DNA from: Escherichia phage EJP2
Reading direction: 5' to 3' (one strand)
DNA length: 64,000 nucleotides
Sequence record: OQ411014.1
Part shown: piece after piece, positions 1 to 39,759 of the stretch
How the letters are laid out: each line of letters begins with the position of its first letter
How positions within the stretch are numbered: the first letter of the stretch is position 1
The notes under the pieces: generated by a model
Database searches by the model: none
What the model was told of the DNA's origin: nothing
Seen by the model: only the letters and a program-made list of their open reading frames with translations
Program-made: the position numbers and the translations under genes

Positions 1-447
1 GTACAGGATGTACTAACTCGTGACGCTTTCAAAATTCACAATATGATGTTCAATATAAAAGAAGTCGTACAGTGCTTATTTTATTGTTCAAAGACTATGC
101 ATGACTTCTTTCATTCGGACATGTGTGATATGTTTGTGTGCACTGTAAATCGGGATGAGTCCTTTATTATGGGTATGCCAATGTCCGTGAATGCAGAGTA
201 CAATGAGTGCGTACTTCGTAATAACCCAGGTTCCTCACCACAACGCGATTTGCACGTGAAGAAGAATACGTACTGCATCAAGGGTGATGATATCGTTATA
301 ATGTTCTTGACAAAAGGTTTCATTCTTGATAACTTTACTGTCAAAGAGAGTTATCATGATTTCAGAGTTCAAGAAGATAATCCAACCGTTATGATCTATG
401 CATCTGATATAGAGAGTTTAGCGATGGATAATCCAGGAGTGATGTAG
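1..447 (+). CDS. hypothetical protein, possibly truncated at window edge
   Basis: Frame is open from base 1; first ATG at 43 (ORF track 43..447); stop TAG 445-447 overlaps the GTG of the next small ORF. Confidence 0.5.
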   Translation, partial: VQDVLTRDAFKIHNMMFNIKEVVQCLFYCSKTMHDFFHSDMCDMFVCTVNRDESFIMGMPMSVNAEYNECVLRNNPGSSPQRDLHVKKNTYCIKGDDIVIMFLTKGFILDNFTVKESYHDFRVQEDNPTVMIYASDIESLAMDNPGVM

Positions 448-29119: not shown

Positions 29120-29178
29120 TACATAATATTTATGTTACTTGTTCATTTTTTGTACAGCTAATGCTAAATAAATTTATA

Positions 29179-29207
29179 TTGACACTGATAAGCAAACATG
29201 CTAGAGT
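29179..29207 (+). promoter_or_regulatory. candidate sigma70-type promoter
   Basis: TTGACA (29179-29184), 17-nt spacer, TGcTAGAGT (29202-29207). Confidence 0.45.
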
Positions 29208-29238
29208 AATCATCTTACACATTCATTGTAGAGGGTAT

Positions 29239-29853
29239 ATGAAAAAAATTCCATTAGAATTGTTACAGATATTTCTTATCTGGTTGCTATGTACTGTTCC
29301 CAGTTCAGCAGAAAGTTTGTCCAGTACTATCTTTAGAGATAAAGAGAATATTGTTCATTTTGGTGCTCCAGTTTCATTCGAGGCATATAGCAAATTACTG
29401 AAAATGTATAAGATAAAACCATTTTCTGAAATTAGACTCACCAGTAATGGTGGAGAATATGATGCTGGTATGAAGATTGCTCACTTAGTTTACACCAATG
29501 ACATATCAGTCTTTGTTCCAAAGTACTGTGCAAGTGCATGTACATTTATATTTTTTGGAGCTAGGGTTGAGCACCGTGACATTGCACCAACGGCAATGTT
29601 GGGATTACATAATGTGTCGTTTGGTATGAACAACTCAACGGGTGAAGACGCGAATAACTCGTCGATAACAGTCAAGGAGGCACTTGATTTTGCACAAGAA
29701 GCAGTTGTAAGATCAGGAATGATGATTTCATTCTATTCTGCGAATGGGATACCAAGTGATGTACTACTTCAAGTATCACAAACATATGGTCAAGGTATCA
29801 TAAATGTGCAACGGGCTGACTTAGTTCGTTGGGGTGCAATACAAGCGAAATAA
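29239..29853 (+). CDS. secreted ClpP/S49-like (crotonase-fold) protein
   Basis: Start moved to ATG 29239: signal peptide MKKIPLELLQIFLIWLLCTVPSSAES; TSNGGEYDAGMKIAHLV and CASACTFIFFG resemble the SPGG and Ser regions of ClpP/SppA-type proteins. Confidence 0.55.
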   Translation: MKKIPLELLQIFLIWLLCTVPSSAESLSSTIFRDKENIVHFGAPVSFEAYSKLLKMYKIKPFSEIRLTSNGGEYDAGMKIAHLVYTNDISVFVPKYCASACTFIFFGARVEHRDIAPTAMLGLHNVSFGMNNSTGEDANNSSITVKEALDFAQEAVVRSGMMISFYSANGIPSDVLLQVSQTYGQGIINVQRADLVRWGAIQAK

Positions 29854-30716: not shown

Positions 30717-31790
30717 ATGAAAAACGAAAACGTATATGTATACATCGGACGCTTCCAGCCAGCACATAAAGGCCACGAAGCAGTACTTGAAAATGCAATC
30801 AAAAAAGCTGACCGTGTTGTTATTCTAGTGGGTAGTGCTGAACAAGCTCGTTCCCCTAAGAACCCGTTCACCTTTGAAGAACGCCAAAAAGTACTGGACG
30901 GTATCACAACTCGTCTTGCACAAGATGAATGGGCGAAAGGTCGCCGTGTGATGATCGACATCCTACCTGTACATGACTTCGTATACAACAACCAGAAATG
31001 GCTCATGGAAGTTCAAGAACAAGTTCGTTCCTGCACTAAAAGTGAAAACATTACTCTAACTGGTTGTCGTAAACATGGCGATGATAGTACTTTCTATCTT
31101 GAGTTCTTCCCTCAGTGGAATCAAGATTTCATTACAGAAACTACACAAGAAGATGTTGGTATCAATGCCACTCAACTACGTAACCAATTCTTCAGTACTA
31201 AACAAGTACCTGAACAAAATGTACTTACTCCTGAAACTGTAGAGTTCCTTGAGAAGTTCAGCGTAGAAAAGAAAGATGTACTAGATTACCTAGTGAAAGA
31301 ACATGCTTTTACTACAAAATATAAAGCAGACATGAAGAAACAACTACCATTTGACACAATCCCATTCCTGACTGGTGATAGTCTGATTGTCTGTGCAGGT
31401 CATGTTCTTGTAGGTATTCGTCGCTCTGAACCAGGCAAAGGTCAGTACTGTCTACCTGGTGGGTTCTTCGATGCATGGAAAGATAAAGATCAAGTTGATA
31501 CTGCTTTACGTGAACTCAAAGAAGAAACCAAAATTGATGTACCAATGAATAAACTACGCGGTTCTATTGAACGTGTAGAAGAGTTTGGTGACTTTGACCG
31601 TGACCCACGCTGGCGTGTAATCACTAAGTGCATCTACATCAAACTTGACGGTACTAAACTACCTAAAGTAAAAGGCTCAGATGATCTCAAAGGTTGCTTC
31701 TGGATGCCTATGACTGAAATTGCTAAAAATCGTGCTAACTTCTTTGTTGATCACGTTTCCATCATTGACACGTTCTTAGGAATCCTGTAA
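30717..31790 (+). CDS. natV: bifunctional NMN adenylyltransferase / Nudix hydrolase (NadM-Nudix, KVP40 NatV-like)
   Basis: N-terminal IGRFQPAHKGH (HxGH); C-terminal Nudix box GGFFDAWKDKDQVDTALRELKEETKI. Confidence 0.85.
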   Translation: MKNENVYVYIGRFQPAHKGHEAVLENAIKKADRVVILVGSAEQARSPKNPFTFEERQKVLDGITTRLAQDEWAKGRRVMIDILPVHDFVYNNQKWLMEVQEQVRSCTKSENITLTGCRKHGDDSTFYLEFFPQWNQDFITETTQEDVGINATQLRNQFFSTKQVPEQNVLTPETVEFLEKFSVEKKDVLDYLVKEHAFTTKYKADMKKQLPFDTIPFLTGDSLIVCAGHVLVGIRRSEPGKGQYCLPGGFFDAWKDKDQVDTALRELKEETKIDVPMNKLRGSIERVEEFGDFDRDPRWRVITKCIYIKLDGTKLPKVKGSDDLKGCFWMPMTEIAKNRANFFVDHVSIIDTFLGIL

Positions 31791-31791
31791 T

Positions 31792-32331
31792 ATGAATGTA
31801 ATTTCTCTGACTCCAGGTTTGAAAGCAGACTTGGATGCAGTAAAGGAAAGTAAGTACAATAAGATAACTAGCTGTACTGAACTAATCTTGAGTACTGATG
31901 GTTATTCTGAATGTAATCAATTGTTCGTTGATGCACTTCAACACATTGATAAAAAACTGTATCTAACCGATTTTCTTTATCTTATTCAGAGAACGTGGAT
32001 TAGCAATGCACAAAACAGAAATCACCTGAATTCAGGTGAAAGTACTTCAAGCTATGGTTATTGGAAATATAACTTCGCTGGAGTATCATCGGATACTTTA
32101 TACATTACGAACTATGTTCCGTCTGGAAATATCAGAATTGTCGATTCAGTACAACATTATGAATATTATGATATTGACACGGAAAAGCCAAGTCTGTATA
32201 CTATATCCGATATCGTAATTAGAAATGAAAAGACATTGTTCAACATGGTATTTCCAACGACTACTAAACTGTTTTCGAAGGAATACATGAAGTTCACAAT
32301 TCCATTGTCTCTGATTATGAACAACCAATAA
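31792..32331 (+). CDS. hypothetical protein (179 aa)
   Basis: ORF track; lies between the two NAD salvage genes. Confidence 0.65.
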   Translation: MNVISLTPGLKADLDAVKESKYNKITSCTELILSTDGYSECNQLFVDALQHIDKKLYLTDFLYLIQRTWISNAQNRNHLNSGESTSSYGYWKYNFAGVSSDTLYITNYVPSGNIRIVDSVQHYEYYDIDTEKPSLYTISDIVIRNEKTLFNMVFPTTTKLFSKEYMKFTIPLSLIMNNQ

Positions 32332-32379
32332 GAACGCGGAGTTCTTATATAACATCAACTACCAAAGAGGTAATATAAA

Positions 32380-33852
32380 ATGCAAAACGTAAATTTCATC
32401 CTAAACGCAGATAGTTACAAGCACTCTCATTTACTAATGATGAAAGAAGGTGTTCAAGCTCTTGAATCAAACATCATTGCTCGTAAACCATCTAAATTCA
32501 CCAGTCATGTAGTTATGATGGGTCTTCAGATTTTCGTTCAGGAATATCTGGATATCACAATTACTGCGGCTGATATCGATGAAGCAGAGATTGAAACAAA
32601 CGAACGTGGTGATGATTTTGACCGCGACTTCTGGGAACACATCGTGAATGTACACAAAGGTAAACTACCTTTACATATCCGTGCTATCCCTGAAGGTACA
32701 GTAGTTCCAGTTGGTATGCCGTTGGTTCGCTCCTTCAGTACTGACCCACGTACTATGGTACTCGCTAGTTTCGTCGAAACTCAATTACAACGTGCAATCT
32801 GGTTCCAAACTACTGTTGCATCTAATGCTCGCAGTATCAAGGAATTTCTTGCTGATACTATGGAACGTCATGCTGGTCATCGCTTTGTGGATTATCATCT
32901 ACATAACTTCGGCTGTCGTGGTGCAAGTTCCTATGAAACAGCAATGCTCGCAGGTGTAGCTCATGCCGCTCTATTCAGTGGCTCTGACTGCCTATTAGCA
33001 AACCGTAGTATCAAATACTACTACAATACTACTAAACCATATGTTAGTAGTGTTATGGCGAGTGAACACAGTGCTACATGTTCTAACTCCGATGCAGACA
33101 AGCGTGATGATTCAGCAATGGCGTTGAAGATGGTTCGCCTATGGGAAAAGAAAGTAGATAAGTTCATTGCTAATGGTTCAGTTGGTGCACCCCCAATTGT
33201 TTCTGTAGTAATCGATACTTATGATGCTTATCGCTTTGTTCGTGAGTTCATCGGTACTCGTCTAAAATCTACAATCGAAGAGATTGCAGCTAAATGTCCA
33301 AGTGCTAAACTAGTAATGCGTCCTGATAGTGGTAATCCACTAACTATGCCAATCGAAATCGTATCTATCCTTATGGAGAAATTCGGTTCAGTACTGAATG
33401 CTAATGGCATGAAAGTACTTCCATCTTTCATTGGTGTTCTTCAGGGCGACGGAGTTTCAGAAAGTTCAATCCGTGAAATCGTCCACAACCTAGAGAAAAA
33501 GAACTACTCTCTAGAGAATCTAATCTTTGGTATGGGTGGTAAAAACTCCCACGTCGAAGGTGGTCGTGATGCATATTCTTTCGCCCAGAAAGGTTGTGCA
33601 CAGCAACTAGCTGATGGTACTTGGGAAGATTTGTTCAAAGATCCTATTACTGACGTTGGGAAAAAATCCCTTCGTGGTCGTGTAACTACTTACTTGTGCA
33701 AAGAAAGTGGGAAGATGATGGCTGAACGAATCGAACTACAAGAAGTAAATCCTTTCTTAGAAGATATGATGGTTGACATTTTTGTAAATGGTGATATCAT
33801 GAATCTAAGCTCTTTTGATGATGTACGTGCTCGTGCGAACAAGGGATTGTAA
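32380..33852 (+). CDS. nadV: nicotinamide phosphoribosyltransferase (Nampt/NadV)
   Basis: N-terminal NFILNADSYKHSH; 490 aa; RPDSGNP; GVLQGDG; family-typical layout. Confidence 0.88.
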   Translation: MQNVNFILNADSYKHSHLLMMKEGVQALESNIIARKPSKFTSHVVMMGLQIFVQEYLDITITAADIDEAEIETNERGDDFDRDFWEHIVNVHKGKLPLHIRAIPEGTVVPVGMPLVRSFSTDPRTMVLASFVETQLQRAIWFQTTVASNARSIKEFLADTMERHAGHRFVDYHLHNFGCRGASSYETAMLAGVAHAALFSGSDCLLANRSIKYYYNTTKPYVSSVMASEHSATCSNSDADKRDDSAMALKMVRLWEKKVDKFIANGSVGAPPIVSVVIDTYDAYRFVREFIGTRLKSTIEEIAAKCPSAKLVMRPDSGNPLTMPIEIVSILMEKFGSVLNANGMKVLPSFIGVLQGDGVSESSIREIVHNLEKKNYSLENLIFGMGGKNSHVEGGRDAYSFAQKGCAQQLADGTWEDLFKDPITDVGKKSLRGRVTTYLCKESGKMMAERIELQEVNPFLEDMMVDIFVNGDIMNLSSFDDVRARANKGL

Positions 33853-33860
33853 TATCAATG

Positions 33861-33885
33861 GGGAGTCTTAGTACTCCCTTTTTTG
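33861..33885 (+). terminator. intrinsic terminator
   Basis: GGGAGT-cttagt-ACTCCC followed by TTTTTT. Confidence 0.7.
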
Positions 33886-33895
33886 CGAGGTTTAT

Positions 33896-34534
33896 ATGTG
33901 GTCTAAAGTAAAAGATAATCTAGATGCGTACATTATCCCACTACACGATGTGGTATGGCTACGAGATGAAGTACGTAAGGCAATGACCGAAGGTTATGCG
34001 TTTCCAGCAGAAGAAGATGAAATTCAAAAAGATGCATCAGTAGTTTCTGATGAAATGATTATCGGTTATCCAGATCCAGAAAATGAAAATATGTTCATGT
34101 TTGGATTCAAAGATGATGATTGTCTGGACGACCAAAGTATCATTGACCACATTACACATCGCTGTTGGGAAGATATTAGTGAAGCTGGTATTGTTTCATT
34201 TGGTGAAATGGAAAGTTTTTCAGCAGTTGTGTATAATGAAGATGTTCCAAATTTCCGTAAGCACAAGACAGAAGTGGATAACTTCCTAACTCATTTGATT
34301 GGTCGATCTATTGTTAGTGATGAGCCATCATTCCTCAATAACACTGCGGAATGTAAAGAATTCATCTTAGAACGATATGATTATGAAAATATGAAACGTA
34401 CTGCGACGAATAAGTGGGGCAACTTCAATTATCGTTTATTTGAAAATGATGAAGGAGATGTCGTGACAATCGTTACATACAATGCTAAACTGATCTCCTA
34501 CTATAACTTCAGATACAAAGACGAGGATCTATAA
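33896..34534 (+). CDS. acidic hypothetical protein (212 aa)
   Basis: ORF track; GAGG RBS. Confidence 0.65.
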   Translation: MWSKVKDNLDAYIIPLHDVVWLRDEVRKAMTEGYAFPAEEDEIQKDASVVSDEMIIGYPDPENENMFMFGFKDDDCLDDQSIIDHITHRCWEDISEAGIVSFGEMESFSAVVYNEDVPNFRKHKTEVDNFLTHLIGRSIVSDEPSFLNNTAECKEFILERYDYENMKRTATNKWGNFNYRLFENDEGDVVTIVTYNAKLISYYNFRYKDEDL

Positions 34535-34535
34535 A

Positions 34536-34748
34536 ATGGTTTTGACTTATCTTTTCATGTTCGGTATGTACGCAGTAACCACTGGTTGTGCATGGTTCCT
34601 GACTTCAATTACATTCATTGGTTGGGCCAATCGTGAAGGTAAAATCAAATACGGCTTGTGGTTCCGTGAGTTCAGTCCTTTTGTAGTACCACTATGGATT
34701 ACAACTATTGTAATTTATATTCTCATCCCAGTAGTATTCTTGGGTTGA
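34536..34748 (+). CDS. small membrane protein (70 aa)
   Basis: Two hydrophobic helices. Confidence 0.6.
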   Translation: MVLTYLFMFGMYAVTTGCAWFLTSITFIGWANREGKIKYGLWFREFSPFVVPLWITTIVIYILIPVVFLG

Positions 34749-34788
34749 CATTACAGTACTGTTCAAGATTTTCTAATAAGGATTATAT

Positions 34789-35391
34789 ATGACTTGTATT
34801 ATCGCTTTTACTGATGGTAAATCATCCTTCATCGCAGGTGACAAACTAGGTTCCAACGGCTTTACTAAATCAGTAATGGTTGAACCAAAAGTCTTTGAGA
34901 AAGAGTTTCATCGTGTTAGTACCAATGATGAAGGTACTGTGCGGACGCGTGAAACGATGGCACTCGGTTATACTACGTCATTTCGTATGGGACAACTTCT
35001 GTCTTACAATCTAGTACTGCCTGACCAAGATGCGAATCAATCCTTCAGTCAGTACCTGGTTCAGAAAGTAATTCCACTTATTCGTCATATGTTCAAAGAT
35101 GAATGGGGTGCACGTGATAGCTCACAAGATATTGGTGGTGGTCAGTTCATTATTCTGCATAACCACACTATCTACGAAGTTCAAGGTGACTTCTCAGTAC
35201 TGCAACCTAAGACACAAATTACTGCTGTAGGTTCAGGTACTTACCATGCAATTGCAGCTATGCAAGCACTACAAAGTGTTTCATCTGATACTAAGAAAGA
35301 TCTACTACATTACGTACCAACGATTTTTGATATTGTCAGTACTAATGTAACTTCAGTATCTGCTGAACATGATGTATTGCATTACAAATAA
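34789..35391 (+). CDS. Ntn hydrolase, proteasome beta/HslV-like
   Basis: MTCIIAFTDGKSSFIAGDKLGSNG: Thr2 would be exposed as the N-terminal nucleophile; parallels HslV TTIVSVRRNGHVVIAGDGQ. Confidence 0.6.
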   Translation: MTCIIAFTDGKSSFIAGDKLGSNGFTKSVMVEPKVFEKEFHRVSTNDEGTVRTRETMALGYTTSFRMGQLLSYNLVLPDQDANQSFSQYLVQKVIPLIRHMFKDEWGARDSSQDIGGGQFIILHNHTIYEVQGDFSVLQPKTQITAVGSGTYHAIAAMQALQSVSSDTKKDLLHYVPTIFDIVSTNVTSVSAEHDVLHYK

Positions 35392-35582
35392 TGGTTGATA
35401 TATTTTTCATTGTAATGATGATGCTTGGTGTATTCGGGTTGATTGCAATTACCCGAATCACTGATAGACCATACACAGATAACATTGAACGCGTTTGTAT
35501 GTTTCTACTAAGTACTATAATGTTGGTTATCGTTGGTGTAGTAGGTTCTATGTTTGCAGAACTAATTCTAATTGCGTACTGA
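35391..35582 (+). CDS. small membrane protein (63 aa)
   Basis: Two TM helices; TAATG overlap. Confidence 0.6.
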   Translation: MVDIFFIVMMMLGVFGLIAITRITDRPYTDNIERVCMFLLSTIMLVIVGVVGSMFAELILIAY

Positions 35583-35605
35583 TGTACGCTTTTTAAGGAG
35601 TACTT

Positions 35606-35839
35606 ATGGACTTAGCAGATTTGGTTTATGTTGTATCGTTAGTACTGTACGGTATTTGTATAGTACTGACTATGTTAGAATGGAGTACTTGGAGTGATGG
35701 TTTCAAAGAACTAAATGGTGAGTTTACCTCTAAATACTATGCAATTAGTTATTTTATCATGAAGTTAGGTATGATTGGAATGTATGGTATTTTGGGATAT
35801 CTATTCTACTTCTTACCTGAACATATGAGATTATTTTAG
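35606..35839 (+). CDS. small membrane protein (77 aa)
   Basis: Two TM helices; AAGGAG RBS. Confidence 0.6.
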   Translation: MDLADLVYVVSLVLYGICIVLTMLEWSTWSDGFKELNGEFTSKYYAISYFIMKLGMIGMYGILGYLFYFLPEHMRLF

Positions 35840-35849
35840 GAGATATAAA

Positions 35850-36281
35850 ATGGCAGGAAAAGGATATTGCAGCCTAAAACTTGATAAAGCACAAGCAAAG
35901 GAATTGAAACGGATTTTAAAAATCGGTGGCGTTGAATGCTTAGACCCTTCGGATTTGCATTGTACTTTAATGTACGATGAAAGTAATCCTAACATCAAAA
36001 TGCTCAAGAACACAAAGACTTATAAAGCTAAAGTAACTGGTGTTAGTAAATTGGGTGATGCGATTGTATTGGATTTGGAATCCCCTGGCATCAAGAAACG
36101 TCATCAGGAATTGAAGAATGCTGGTTATAAGCACTCATTCCCTGAATTGAAAATTCATATGAGCATCAACTACGATCCAAAAAGTACTGATAAGGATTTA
36201 CTAGAACTCTTTATCAAATTGAAGGGTATTCCTTCAGTACTGATATTTGGTAATGAAAAATTTGAATCTCTAAAGCCGTAA
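35850..36281 (+). CDS. 2H phosphoesterase, Acb1-like candidate (anti-cyclic-nucleotide signalling)
   Basis: Two H-x-T/S motifs (LHCTLMY at His37, IHMSINY at His103) 66 residues apart in a 143-aa protein, matching the size and spacing of the T4 Acb1 / LigT-type 2H fold. Confidence 0.5.
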   Translation: MAGKGYCSLKLDKAQAKELKRILKIGGVECLDPSDLHCTLMYDESNPNIKMLKNTKTYKAKVTGVSKLGDAIVLDLESPGIKKRHQELKNAGYKHSFPELKIHMSINYDPKSTDKDLLELFIKLKGIPSVLIFGNEKFESLKP

Positions 36282-36291
36282 GGAGTATATA

Positions 36292-37050
36292 ATGGACGTG
36301 AATAAATTTCTTGACAACAAAGGACAAAAGCGTCTGTTAGTACTAACTGGTGCGGGTTTCAGTGCGGAATCTGGAGTTAGTACATTTCGTGATGCAGAAG
36401 ATGCCCTATGGGAAGGTGTGAAGATTAACGATGTATGTAACATTGCGAGCTTAGGCTTTAAGTACGCACAAGTACATGCATTCTACAACACACTAAGAAC
36501 TATCATCAAGGACAAAGAGCCTAACGAAGCACACTATGAAATTAGCGTTATGGAGTCAATGTACGGGGATAACTTCCTACACATGACTGCTAATATCGAT
36601 GATTTATATGAGCGTGCTGGTGGCACTGCTATGCACCTTCATGGCAACATCAAAGAAGTCATTGAGAACTATTCAATGGCACATAACGACTTTACAGTAC
36701 TGGATGTTGGATATGAAGTTTATATTCCAAAGGAAGGTGTATTTGCTAAACCTAATGTAGTATTCATTGGTGAATCAGAGCGTTATGTGAATAACCAGCG
36801 TATTCCGTTGTATGAAGAACGAAATAAAGTACTGGCATCCTTGACAGACTTAGATACCGTTGTTATCATTGGTTCATCGGATACAATCCTGAAGTGGAGT
36901 TCGTTGGTTGGTTTAGGCACACCAGCTTATACCATCAACATCAACACAAGAAAGAATGACACTGACTGGGCGTTCGATAAGAAGATTTACAAGCCAGTAA
37001 CTAAAGCGTTATTGGAATTGAGGGAGTTAGTTCTTACACGGATGGGATAG
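36292..37050 (+). CDS. Sir2-family NAD-dependent protein (deacylase or ADP-ribosyltransferase), no Zn-ribbon cysteines
   Basis: GAGFSAESGVSTFRD, TANIDDLYERAG, HLHGN, KPNVVFIGE, IIGSSD motifs; no Cys pairs between HLHGN and VVFIGE. Confidence 0.8.
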   Translation: MDVNKFLDNKGQKRLLVLTGAGFSAESGVSTFRDAEDALWEGVKINDVCNIASLGFKYAQVHAFYNTLRTIIKDKEPNEAHYEISVMESMYGDNFLHMTANIDDLYERAGGTAMHLHGNIKEVIENYSMAHNDFTVLDVGYEVYIPKEGVFAKPNVVFIGESERYVNNQRIPLYEERNKVLASLTDLDTVVIIGSSDTILKWSSLVGLGTPAYTININTRKNDTDWAFDKKIYKPVTKALLELRELVLTRMG

Positions 37051-37059
37051 GAGTGAGTT

Positions 37060-37614
37060 ATGGATTTTACAGAGATACCATTCGGACAACGCAGTGAAAG
37101 ATTTGACTGTGCGTTCGTTTGGATCTACGCTAAGAATTGCACACCATACAAGGATTATCCATATAATGATATTCCTAACGTATCTTTAGTACTGACAGAG
37201 TTACGCTTTGATGGTCTAATGGGTGCGGTTGGTGGAGCAGTTGAGGATGATGATCCTTCATTGGAAGTGGCAGTGCAACGTGAAGCCTTAGAGGAAATAA
37301 ACTTTTCTCTTGACATTACTAATCTGAAACCGTTATTATCATTACGTTCCCCATACGGAGCACATAACCATAGTTTCTCGTACGAAGTACAGTACGATGA
37401 GCTACTAGAGATTCGGAACAACGCATACAAAGGTGCTCACTTCAGTGCTGAAAATGCGGGTGTAAATCTGATTCACGTATGTCGCTATACGAAGGGAAGA
37501 GGGAACGAATGTGGTTACAATAACATTCTTACACAGAATTTTATTGGCACATCCAAACTGGAACTAGAGCGTTTAGTTCATAATGAAAATTTACTAATAA
37601 ATTACCTTGCATAA
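37060..37614 (+). CDS. Nudix hydrolase
   Basis: Nudix box GGAVEDDDPSLEVAVQREALEEINF. Confidence 0.75.
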   Translation: MDFTEIPFGQRSERFDCAFVWIYAKNCTPYKDYPYNDIPNVSLVLTELRFDGLMGAVGGAVEDDDPSLEVAVQREALEEINFSLDITNLKPLLSLRSPYGAHNHSFSYEVQYDELLEIRNNAYKGAHFSAENAGVNLIHVCRYTKGRGNECGYNNILTQNFIGTSKLELERLVHNENLLINYLA

Positions 37615-37624
37615 AGGATAAAAT

Positions 37625-37957
37625 ATGTATAAGATGTTTATAGACGACCTTCGGGATGCAGAGAAGCATTACCCAAATGAAGGATTCATCGTCACAAGGA
37701 CTTACAATGAAGCTGTACAGTACGTACAAGAACATGGTCTACCTAGTTTTGTTTCATTCGACCATGACTTGGGCGACACTGACAGTACTGATGAGAAGAC
37801 TGGATATTCTTTTGCTAAGTTCCTCATCGAGTACATGATTGATAACGATTTGCGGGAACCGTTTGAGTACTTTATTCACAGTGCTAATCCAGTTGGTGCA
37901 GAGAATATCAAACAGTACTTGCAAAATGGGTTCAACTTTATCCAAGGGCAAGCATGA
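37625..37957 (+). CDS. receiver-like domain protein (cyclic-phosphate-processing receiver type, tentative)
   Basis: MFIDDLRD ... SFDHDLG ... HSANPVG pattern recalled for this phage-associated receiver-fold family. Confidence 0.4.
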   Translation: MYKMFIDDLRDAEKHYPNEGFIVTRTYNEAVQYVQEHGLPSFVSFDHDLGDTDSTDEKTGYSFAKFLIEYMIDNDLREPFEYFIHSANPVGAENIKQYLQNGFNFIQGQA

Positions 37958-38244
37958 AAGTAATAACATTTATTCTGATTTTGATTGTTGTTGTTGGTAT
38001 TCGCCTTAAAATAGCGGAGAACCAATACAACACTGAAAGACTGAATATTACGAAAGAATCTGGAACAGTAGTTGCAACTGGACAATGCAACAAATACACT
38101 TGTGCTTACTCTGTAAAAACCTCTAGTGGTTCTACAGTGAACAGTACTGGTGACACTCCGGTAAGTCTCGGTCAAATCGTATACCGTGAATGCTGGGAAG
38201 AAAGGGTCAGGGGTCCGCGTTGTTACGTAGACTTTAGACCATAA
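37954..38244 (+). CDS. membrane-anchored small protein (96 aa)
   Basis: N-terminal TM helix VITFILILIVVVGI; ATGA overlap. Confidence 0.6.
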   Translation: MKVITFILILIVVVGIRLKIAENQYNTERLNITKESGTVVATGQCNKYTCAYSVKTSSGSTVNSTGDTPVSLGQIVYRECWEERVRGPRCYVDFRP

Positions 38245-38269
38245 AACACTATCATGAAAAGGGAATTTT

Positions 38270-39724
38270 ATGAAAAAATATGCTATTGATACAAACGTAC
38301 TTCTAAGCGATCCAAACGCAGCAACCGCTTTCAAAGGTGCTACAGTGGTTCTACCATTTACAGTACTGGAAGAAATGGACTCCATCAAGAGTCGTGGTGT
38401 TGACGTTAGCCGTGATGCACGTGTAGCAATTCGCAATATCAGTAACATCCTGGAAGACGCGTCTCATGAAGAGATTAGTACTACTGGGGTTGATATGTCC
38501 AAACTACATCCACATTTAGATTCCGACAGTCGTCTAATGATTGTTACATCTGAAGAAGCTGAAGCACTTCTACGTGTTGCAGGTATTGATAAGTCCGATG
38601 CTGAACTTACAAAAGTTGCTACACTAATGAACAGTACTGTACCGGATGACAAGATTATTCTTGTTGCTCTAGCTACAGAATCAGTACTGGTTACTCGTGA
38701 TATCAACATGCGTATCAAAGCTATGGCTTATGGTGTTGAAGTTCAGGACTATCGTAGTGATGTTACTATTTCCGATTCTGACCTACTACATATTGGGAAC
38801 CACAAACTAGAGTTTTCGTTCTGGGATACCATTGCGGATCGTGGTTTAGAAGTTTTCAGTACTAAAGAAGGTCGTAACACTTATCAACTAATTGCTAAAG
38901 ATGCAATTCAGGATCTACTACCAGAAAATCTATGCGTTGGTGACTATCTATATGATGACACTGATTTGCTAATGGTATATGATGGAGAAGGTGATCGTGA
39001 GTTCTCTGATGGTGAAGTTGATGACACAGTGTACTCCGTGTTCATTGATGTTGGTCAACACAGTGCAATGCGTACTAAGATTTGGGATATCAAAGCTAAG
39101 AACGTGAAACAAGCAATGGCAATCAACAGTATTCTTGACCCTAATGTTCACTTGACAGTACTGTTAGGTTCTGCGGGTACAGGTAAGACTTTGATTACTC
39201 TAGCATGTGCACTAGAACTAACATTAGAGAAGCGTCAGTACGATAAAGTTATTTTCTCTAAAACCCAAGACTCACAGTTTGATGAAATTGGTTTCTTACC
39301 AGGAACCGAAATGGAAAAAATGCTTCCGAATTGTGGACCTGCACTGGATGCATTGGAATTCCTTCACAAAGATGATGCTAACCCTCAAGGTTCAATTGAA
39401 GAAATCATCAAACGTAATGTTGTACAATTCAAAGCACTGAACTTTATTCGTGGACGTTCGTTTACCAATACAATTCTAGTTGTTGATGAATTCCAAAACA
39501 TTACTCCGGCTCAAGCTAAAACTATCTTGACACGGGCAGGAATGAACTGTAAAGTTATCATCATGGGTAACTTAGCACAGATTGATAGTAAGTTTATCAG
39601 TTCTGTAAACAGCGGTTTGACCTATGTAGTTGAGAAGTTCAAAGATTGGGAAGGTTGTCGTATCATCGAACTCGAAGGTGTTGTACGTTCTGCACTAGCT
39701 GAATTCGCTGAAGAAAATATGTAA
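38270..39724 (+). CDS. phoH: PIN-domain / PhoH-like ATPase fusion (PhoH2/YlaK type)
   Basis: N-terminal YAIDTNVLLSDP (PIN); Walker A GSAGTGKT; VVDEFQN; RGRSF. Confidence 0.85.
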   Translation: MKKYAIDTNVLLSDPNAATAFKGATVVLPFTVLEEMDSIKSRGVDVSRDARVAIRNISNILEDASHEEISTTGVDMSKLHPHLDSDSRLMIVTSEEAEALLRVAGIDKSDAELTKVATLMNSTVPDDKIILVALATESVLVTRDINMRIKAMAYGVEVQDYRSDVTISDSDLLHIGNHKLEFSFWDTIADRGLEVFSTKEGRNTYQLIAKDAIQDLLPENLCVGDYLYDDTDLLMVYDGEGDREFSDGEVDDTVYSVFIDVGQHSAMRTKIWDIKAKNVKQAMAINSILDPNVHLTVLLGSAGTGKTLITLACALELTLEKRQYDKVIFSKTQDSQFDEIGFLPGTEMEKMLPNCGPALDALEFLHKDDANPQGSIEEIIKRNVVQFKALNFIRGRSFTNTILVVDEFQNITPAQAKTILTRAGMNCKVIIMGNLAQIDSKFISSVNSGLTYVVEKFKDWEGCRIIELEGVVRSALAEFAEENM

Positions 39725-39731
39725 TATATTG

Positions 39732-39759
39732 GGGGAGTTTCAATACTCCCCATTCATTT
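39732..39759 (+). terminator. candidate terminator
   Basis: GGGGAGT-ttcaat-ACTCCCC followed by ATTCATTT (weak U tract). Confidence 0.5.

Follow-up and report, generated by a model that had tools for sequence, protein, structure and literature searches.

The gene at positions 36,292 to 37,050 of a 64,000-nucleotide (nt) stretch of Escherichia phage EJP2 (OQ411014.1; the whole stretch is referred to below as the window) encodes a sirtuin. Judged by its sequence, the product is probably a catalytically competent member of a phage-specific, cysteine-less branch of the class-III-like (CobB/SIRT5-type) sirtuins. Alignments indicate that this phage sirtuin family is characterized throughout the clade by missing Zn ligands, and that the loss arose within a viral radiation. 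The mechanism favored here, by analogy and at somewhat less than even confidence, is a Tpt1-like removal of 2'-phosphates from RNA, with deacylation as its main rival. The activity, substrate, and product of the EJP2 protein are what we infer.

Assignment to the sirtuins can be made through profile searches, motifs, and residue conservation. The protein matches the Pfam SIR2 profile (PF02146) with 71.5 bits against a cut-off of 24 (E=1.1e-19) and the PHROG 2162 'Sir2' profile with E=1.4e-65, and, among solved structures, the best sequence matches are to the E. coli CobB entries 6rxj and 1s5p (E about 1e-24). Five sirtuin motifs quoted in a first-pass annotation of this DNA were all located in the 252-residue open reading frame (ORF), which thus contains the HG with the catalytic His as well as the GAGxS and (T)xN(I)D NAD-binding motifs that characterize sirtuins (Table 1). 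In an alignment of 66 sequences, spanning homologues down to 30% identity, G20, G22, S24, G28, Y65, N101, D103, and H117 are invariant, and F32 and R33 of GAGFSAESGVSTFRD are at least 90% conserved; H117 and G118 are kept in all 139 sequences of a broader comparison. The ORF opens with ATG, carries an AAGGAG ribosome-binding site 6 nt 5' of this codon, and encodes a genuine, probably active sirtuin that uses nicotinamide adenine dinucleotide (NAD+) and has its catalytic side intact.

Canonical sirtuins have a small domain in which two CxxC pairs bind a structural Zn, a feature that the EJP2 protein does not share. There is no cysteine in residues 120-152, between HLHGN and KPNVVFIGE, as the first-pass annotation had noticed, and only one in the whole protein. 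Its description of a trimmed Sir2 that lacks the zinc-ribbon module must be revised, however, as the length matches that of CobB (the spacer from HG to KPNVV is 35 residues long versus 36 in E. coli CobB) and a hairpin remnant stays in place. An AlphaFold2 model built on the 66 homologues (predicted local distance difference test, pLDDT, 93.5; predicted template modeling score, pTM, 0.90) has pLDDT of about 94-95 across residues 111-160 and places a beta-hairpin in the remnant, with strands at 118-125 and 135-138 (pLDDT about 94). Relative to three Zn-bearing relatives (P0068, P0115, and P0120), the C..C of the first knuckle is replaced by E125..S128 and the second knuckle, about 8 residues, is deleted; no conserved substitute set of His, Asp, or Glu ligands was found in this part of the alignment. 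As modeled, the small domain has lost its Zn ligands and kept a hairpin remnant, and is reduced, not absent; in the phage Cys-less branch, a short beta-hairpin with a D(V/I)GY motif is predicted to stand in for the structural Zn site. A Cys-free run of 33 residues is by itself no improbable event, and the weight of the missing cysteines is comparative: it comes from homology, not from chance odds. The role of Zn in sirtuins is structural and not catalytic (PMC8556138).

Comparison across the family reveals how far this loss extends. A neighbor-joining distance tree was built from 139 sequences, comprising the query, phage references, and representatives of 50%-identity clusters drawn from a search of 1.84 billion proteins. 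The EJP2 sirtuin lies inside a contiguous group of 48 Cys-less representatives. The corresponding segment holds 0-2 cysteines in these 48 viral-clade sequences and a CxxC pair in none of them, whereas 79-100% of Zn-type relatives have Cys at the first-knuckle positions. A sister group of 50 representatives, which has the unusual D/N-(I/V)-G-Y motif in common with the Cys-less group, has mostly retained CxxC...CxxC, the first-knuckle columns being Cys in 96-100%. Members of the sister group that still bear the Zn site are found on T4-like phage contigs, which places the loss within a largely viral radiation. These 'WDIGY' sirtuins occur at L014 1526-4841 and at L010 1-3427, on T4-like contigs (Gp23 fragment), and in both contigs their neighbors are a gene of the arginase family and one for an AAA_28 (NadR-kinase-like) protein. 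Homologues of the EJP2 gene were found by tblastn in 991 phage records. Every sampled representative of the proteobacterial-phage lineages (the PHROG 2162 clade) is Cys-less and has D(I/V)GY; the sampling covered 121Q/Hallingskeid-like jumbo phages, KVP40, rV5-like Vequintavirus, Mydovirus, T5-like Tequintavirus, Phapecoctavirus, and one Pseudomonas myovirus. Ralstonia phage RsoM2USA and Streptomyces phage Karp have ordinary CxxC sirtuins. A scan of multi-domain relatives for informative fusions turned up only tandem SIR2 domains or WG repeats.

Separate losses of the Zn ligands took place in at least two further CobB-like lineages. One is an 'EIFKMRSE...DGGQLR' type with 23 representatives, and the other is an alphaproteobacterial pair that includes P0042 of Pseudochelatococcus. 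The latter, from Pseudochelatococcus lubricantis (L008 8001-9496), is a cellular Cys-less sirtuin with a DIGY motif, and its gene overlaps by 4 nt with a downstream gene for an LplA/LipB-type lipoate-ligase catalytic domain. The pair recalls the SirTM-LplA2 operon, except that the P0042 locus is without a macrodomain. In addition, Zn-less sirtuins of acetic acid bacteria were noted in silico in a 2025 paper (PMC11820453). The first-pass annotation had held that a Zn-free CobB subclass with ordinary deacetylase activity would overturn its reading. Such CobB-like proteins do exist in bacteria, but none with demonstrated deacetylase activity was found, and literature searches gave no Zn-free sirtuin with a measured activity, the in silico note on acetic acid bacteria being their one pertinent result.

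The EJP2 gene belongs to a known and annotated phage sirtuin family for which a context-based functional prediction has been published. Iyer, Burroughs, Anantharaman, and Aravind (2022, Viruses 14:1977, section 3.7.3) described a viral sirtuin clade and its neighborhood (PMC9503650); examples include AQW88637.1 of Serratia phage BF, 121Q gp476, KVP40.0043, and the 'Sir2-like' genes of T5-like and rV5-like phages. The first neighborhood type in that paper combines 2H, Nudix, cREC, and PIN endoRNase domains, all four of which flank the EJP2 gene, with the difference that Nudix and cREC are separate genes here. An rV5/Mydo-type configuration features tRNA ligase, cREC, kinase, and MazG, and a T5/SP15-type configuration features the HAD 'Swiss-army-knife' phosphatase (PMC9503650). 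The authors proposed that the sirtuin acts like KptA/Tpt1 in NAD+-dependent RNA 2'-phosphate removal (PMC9503650). A term search of the main text, as distinct from the supplements, returned no passage on the Zn ligands of these sirtuins. The EJP2 sirtuin is 46-76% identical to jumbo-phage members of the same protein family, the nearest phage protein being that of Erwinia phage Hallingskeid (76%). A megablast of the locus at 35800-38000 against 50,697 phage records gave no nucleotide-level match, so relatives were sought at the protein level. A Sir2 that is 99% identical (P0001) is encoded on a 19-kb public metagenome contig. Literature searches found no assay of any phage sirtuin. Care must be taken with family labels: a second 'Sir2-like protein' of phage vB_EcoM-ECP26 (L004 5806-6519) has no SIR2 Pfam match and no sirtuin alignment, and its label is probably a mis-annotation.

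Known sirtuins provide a reference for the kind of chemistry that may be expected. Foldseek ranks CobB first (TM score 0.78 when normalized to the query and 0.87 when normalized to the target), and the modeled fold, a canonical sirtuin fold with a Rossmann NAD-binding core, is nearest to the true deacylases CobB and Sir2Af1, not to SirTM or defense SIR2. In SirTM, Gln replaces the catalytic His, Zn is bound, and the operon includes a macrodomain, GcvH-L, and LplA (PMC8120803). The EJP2 protein, in contrast, has His117 and no Zn site, and no macrodomain is encoded in the 33-41 kb interval of the window. Defense SIR2 NADases (ThsA, DSR2, SIR2-HerA, KomC, and Avs5) are likewise without a Zn ribbon and likewise use NAD+; resemblance of the EJP2 sirtuin to defense SIR2 is nevertheless low, and a PADLOC scan for defense-type SIR2 gave 0 matches.

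Departures from CobB are found at several other sites. Scores against the NCBIfam CobB equivalog models are 49-104 bits, compared with cut-offs of 221-395. The YxxR pair binds the acyl carboxylate and defines the class III sirtuins (SIRT5 and CobB); the EJP2 protein has Y65 but Leu68. The Arg is L, M, or Q in much of the jumbo subclade, where P0032 and P0123 retain it, and is retained in most non-jumbo members of the viral clade. Ala76 of E. coli CobB, an acyl-pocket residue, corresponds to Cys49, as read from the alignment rows of CobB A76G mutant structures, and this Cys is present in 96% of the viral clade. The canonical TQNID of CobB is TANID in EJP2, with the canonical Q100 being T or A across the clade, and the CobB staple 'GTSxxVYP' ('VYP') has become 'GSSDTILKW' ('ILKW'). 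Past the substrate loop, 8 residues that are extra relative to CobB (163-170, after the FGE loop) fall inside ERYVNNQRIPLYE, for which a hairpin with strands at 163-166 and 169-172 is modeled. This insertion is confined to the jumbo subclade and occurs in 38% of the viral representatives; KVP40 and the T5-like and rV5-like phages do not have it, nor does any cellular group. Loss of the YxxR Arg and the hairpin at the substrate loop are consistent with a changed substrate in the jumbo subclade.

These comparisons bear directly on the possibility that the protein is an ordinary CobB-like, NAD+-dependent lysine deacylase (a deacetylase, desuccinylase, or lipoamidase) whose targets are proteins of the host or the phage. 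Zn stabilization would then have been exchanged for hydrophobic packing, Nudix would clear O-acyl-ADP-ribose, and NAMPT and NMNAT would recycle nicotinamide, a cycle that with its NAD+ resynthesis is just as coherent as that of the favored mechanism. The catalytic His, the (F/I)GE loop, I102 (equivalent to CobB I131), and Y65 are all kept, YxxR is present in most of the wider viral clade, the metal that was lost is not a catalytic one (PMC8556138), and the Cys-less P0042 gene overlaps an LplA-like gene. On the other hand, a score of about 100 bits is far from the CobB equivalog cut-offs, the GTS-x-VxP staple has been replaced, and YxxR has been lost in the jumbo subclade. Moreover, the recurrent neighbors are RNA ligase, kinase, cREC, HAD-SAK, and PIN-PhoH genes, with no protein-modification gene among them. 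Taken as a whole, ordinary deacylation seems rather unlikely, while being the strongest competitor.

RNA 2'-phosphate removal is suggested by this recurrent gene context and by a formal parallel with sirtuin chemistry, and on that footing it is put forward as a tentative choice, held with a little less than even confidence. Linkage of the sirtuin gene to RNA-repair genes is seen in four phage lineages of the clade, including the EJP2 jumbo lineage. The gene run is kinase, Rnl1, cREC, and Sir2 in an rV5-like phage, and phosphoesterase, RNA ligase, AAA kinase, and Sir2 in a Mydovirus. In a T5-like phage, HAD_SAK_2 (the 'Swiss-army-knife' RNA-repair domain) lies 3' of Sir2 with 26.9 bits, just below the cut-off, and in EJP2 the RNA-related partner is PIN-PhoH2. 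At this T5-like locus (L005 4822-5488), the match of the 92-residue ORF 3' of Sir2 is limited to the C-terminal half of HAD_SAK_2, and a 387-nt unannotated gap precedes the ORF; the gene may either extend beyond its annotated limits or be disrupted.

Within the jumbo phages, conserved synteny ties the sirtuin to a small set of genes. A Nudt16-like Nudix gene lies directly 3' of Sir2 in EJP2 and in all jumbo relatives compared, with a 9-nt gap here and a 4-nt overlap in 121Q, and the synteny persists down to 46% identity. The pathway shared by Sir2 and the downstream Nudix that the first-pass annotation had suggested is supported by this arrangement. The gene order recurs in Erwinia phage Hallingskeid, in 121Q (Sir2 57% identical), and in three metagenomic contigs (46-52% identity), and PIN-PhoH is syntenic in all jumbo relatives. 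In two of these contigs, from more distant jumbo relatives, Nudt16-like Nudix and cREC form a single 301-residue fusion (L011 6783-7688 and L012 6804-7709), which supports a joint function for the two. cREC also adjoins Sir2 in an rV5-like phage.

Sir2 is proposed to be the NAD+-consuming core of a conserved jumbo-phage module, whose other members are the Nudt16-like Nudix, cREC, the small membrane protein, and PIN-PhoH2, and which adjoins the NAD+-resynthesis genes. If the protein does act on RNA 2'-phosphates, the first step would be an attack on C1'' of NAD+, in the geometry of the sirtuin C-pocket, by the oxygen of a 2'-phosphate that persists on RNA after a break has been healed or ligated. 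This would be analogous to Tpt1/KptA, with the ADP-ribosyl group moved from NAD+ to an oxygen nucleophile on RNA. Nicotinamide would then leave and could be recycled by the adjoining NAMPT and NMNAT. Next, the ribose 2''-OH, activated by His117, would generate ADP-ribose 1'',2''-cyclic phosphate, which cREC (together with 2H where present) and Nudix would break down. The proposed logic is that of Tpt1/KptA, in which NAD+ and a 2'-phosphate give nicotinamide and ADP-ribose 1'',2''-cyclic phosphate, and Tpt1/KptA genes are likewise associated with genes for RNA ligase, kinase, and cyclic phosphodiesterase. The Tpt1/KptA fold, however, belongs to the ADP-ribosyltransferase (ART) superfamily and is unrelated, so the likeness is one of functional analogy. 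A non-classical role in ADP-ribosyl transfer, which the first-pass annotation had raised, is plausible and coincides with the published prediction (PMC9503650). A broader proposal, which we regard as possible and hold more doubtfully, is that the Cys-less phage sirtuins are the first nucleic-acid-acting sirtuins, either Tpt1-analogous RNA 2'-phosphotransferases or related RNA-end ADP-ribosyl transferases. On that proposal, loss of the Zn knuckles and, in jumbo phages, gain of the hairpin by the substrate loop would have remodeled the cleft, from one that accepts acyl-lysine peptides to one that accepts RNA ends.

Several points weigh against an RNA substrate. The nearest proteins by both sequence and fold are bona fide protein deacylases, and, among cellular Cys-less homologues, the closest shares an operon with an LplA-like lipoate ligase, an arrangement that indicates acyl-lysine substrates. 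Part of the argument is circular because the function of cREC is itself a contextual prediction. The 2H neighbor is of the anti-CBASS (cyclic oligonucleotide-based antiphage signaling system) Acb1 family and is inconsistently linked to Sir2. No RNA ligase or tRNA gene was found in the 64-kb window, nor were homologues of the RNA ligase, kinase, and cREC of the rV5-like cassette. A search for Rnl1 returned no phage record above 300 kb in 60 spread-sampled matches, a suggestive result from a search whose scope was Rnl1 as opposed to Rnl2 and RtcB. Finally, literature searches found no biochemistry for any member of the clade.

The same island of genes invites a third explanation, in which the sirtuin is a counter-defense enzyme acting on NAD+ or ADP-ribose (ADPr) small molecules. 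As an NADase or transglycosidase, it would make or destroy an NAD-derived signal and work with Acb1, Nudix, and cREC as an anti-signaling island. The locus does unite an Acb1-family 2H protein, two Nudix domains, cREC, and NARP2-type NAD+ resynthesis genes, and phage Nudix, cREC, and SLOG domains have been proposed to act on soluble ADPr signals (PMC9503650 and PMC7824862). Yet the adjacency of 2H/Acb1 varies, and the substrate cleft and catalytic His are conserved as for transfer to a macromolecule. Destruction of NAD+ would work against the adjoining NARP2 genes, and nothing favors the NADase role considered in the first-pass annotation for a gene that adjoins NAD-rebuilding genes. This explanation is considered improbable. 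That annotation also entertained a decoy or antagonist of host SIR2-type defense effectors. Such a protein, devoid of catalysis, would bind the effectors or their activators, a suggestion for which only the family name and the phage origin can be cited. The NAD-binding and catalytic residues are invariant over deep divergence, resemblance to defense SIR2 is low, and the conserved enzymatic partners Nudix and cREC imply that a product is processed, which counts against a decoy. The suggestion is therefore unsupported and highly improbable.

The surrounding genes are listed together with the features of the sirtuin in Table 1. All genes from 30717 to 39724 are on the + strand; between 2H and PhoH, adjacent genes are separated by 9-25 nt or overlap by 4 nt. 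The order from 5' to 3' is NMNAT-Nudix, an uncharacterized ORF, NAMPT, another uncharacterized ORF, an HslV-like peptidase, small hydrophobic ORFs, 2H/Acb1, Sir2, the Nudt16-like Nudix, cREC, the small membrane protein, and PIN-PhoH. NMNAT-Nudix and NAMPT form a NARP2-type NAD+ reconstitution pair that lies just ahead of the Sir2 block and whose synteny holds in all jumbo relatives. The 2H protein has intact HxT (H37) and HxS (H113) motifs and matches KVP40 gp57B by tblastn (E=3e-7). It is a variable neighbor: it is not beside Sir2 in 121Q or L013, and the KVP40 copy is about 160 kb from Sir2, so that the link to 2H drawn in the first-pass annotation is looser than supposed. Given its membership of the Acb1/gp57B family, the 2H protein may be an anti-CBASS nuclease outside the Sir2 pathway rather than an enzyme of it. 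Pharokka/PHROG-style annotation mislabels this gene as an 'RNA ligase'. The small protein at 37954..38244 has no Pfam match, and PIN-PhoH scores 151 bits with NCBIfam PhoH2, under the cut-off. Two terminator-like hairpins with a near-identical stem (GGGGAGT...ACTCCC), at 33860-33879 after NAMPT and at 39732-39751 after PhoH, bracket the interval 33896-39724 and may represent a reused phage terminator or regulatory hairpin. Interspersed among the NAD genes, and conserved in 121Q, are a ClpP-like homologue (29161-29853; weak match, E=7e-4) and an HslV-family peptidase homologue (34789-35391).

Table 1. Sirtuin features and neighboring genes, in window coordinates
Feature	Residues	Nucleotides	Strand	Remarks
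Sirtuin ORF, viral cysteine-less clade		36292..37050	+	252 residues
NAD-binding motif GAGFSAESGVSTFRD	20-34	36349..36393	+	G20, G22, S24, G28 invariant
C49, sole cysteine of the sirtuin	49	36436..36438	+	aligns with CobB A76, acyl-pocket residue
TANIDDLYERAG	99-110	36586..36621	+	contains NAD-ribose ligands N101 and D103, both invariant
HLHGN	115-119	36634..36648	+	catalytic His117 at 36640-36642
Cys-less Zn-module remnant with D(V/I)GY motif	120-152	36649..36747	+	0 Cys
KPNVVFIGE	153-161			
Insertion ERYVNNQRIPLYE past the (F/I)GE substrate loop	162-174	36775..36813	+	modeled beta-hairpin
IIGSSD	192-197			
Bifunctional NMNAT-Nudix (NatV-like)		30717..31790	+	NF003786 266 bits; Pfam CTP_transf_like + NUDIX
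Nicotinamide phosphoribosyltransferase NadV/NAMPT		32380..33852	+	NAPRTase + NAMPT_N; PHROG 448 E=2e-129
2H phosphoesterase, Acb1/gp57B family		35850..36281	+	Pfam Acb1 E=1.8e-17
Nudt16-like Nudix hydrolase		37060..37614	+	PF22327 E=2.6e-17
cREC, cyclic-phosphate-processing receiver-like		37625..37957	+	PF20274 E=6e-26
Small protein, hydrophobic N-terminus, conserved position		37954..38244	+	syntenic counterparts annotated membrane protein (Hallingskeid, 121Q)
PIN-PhoH, PhoH2-type RNA nuclease/helicase		38270..39724	+	PIN_4 E=1e-21, PhoH E=4e-43

At present, the EJP2 gene does not stand out within a family that had already been described, and clade-wide loss of the Zn ligands, with an origin inside a viral radiation, is a modest addition to prior knowledge. 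This loss offers a natural case of a sirtuin whose small domain folds in the absence of a metal, which can be of use in enzyme engineering, and it bears on the annotation rules by which such genes are now named 'NAD-dependent deacetylase'. If an RNA-directed activity is true, sirtuin chemistry would reach from protein acyl-lysines to RNA phosphates, and many phages (a homologue occurs in 991 records) would carry an NAD-dependent RNA repair step of the yeast type that could be directed against host anticodon nucleases.
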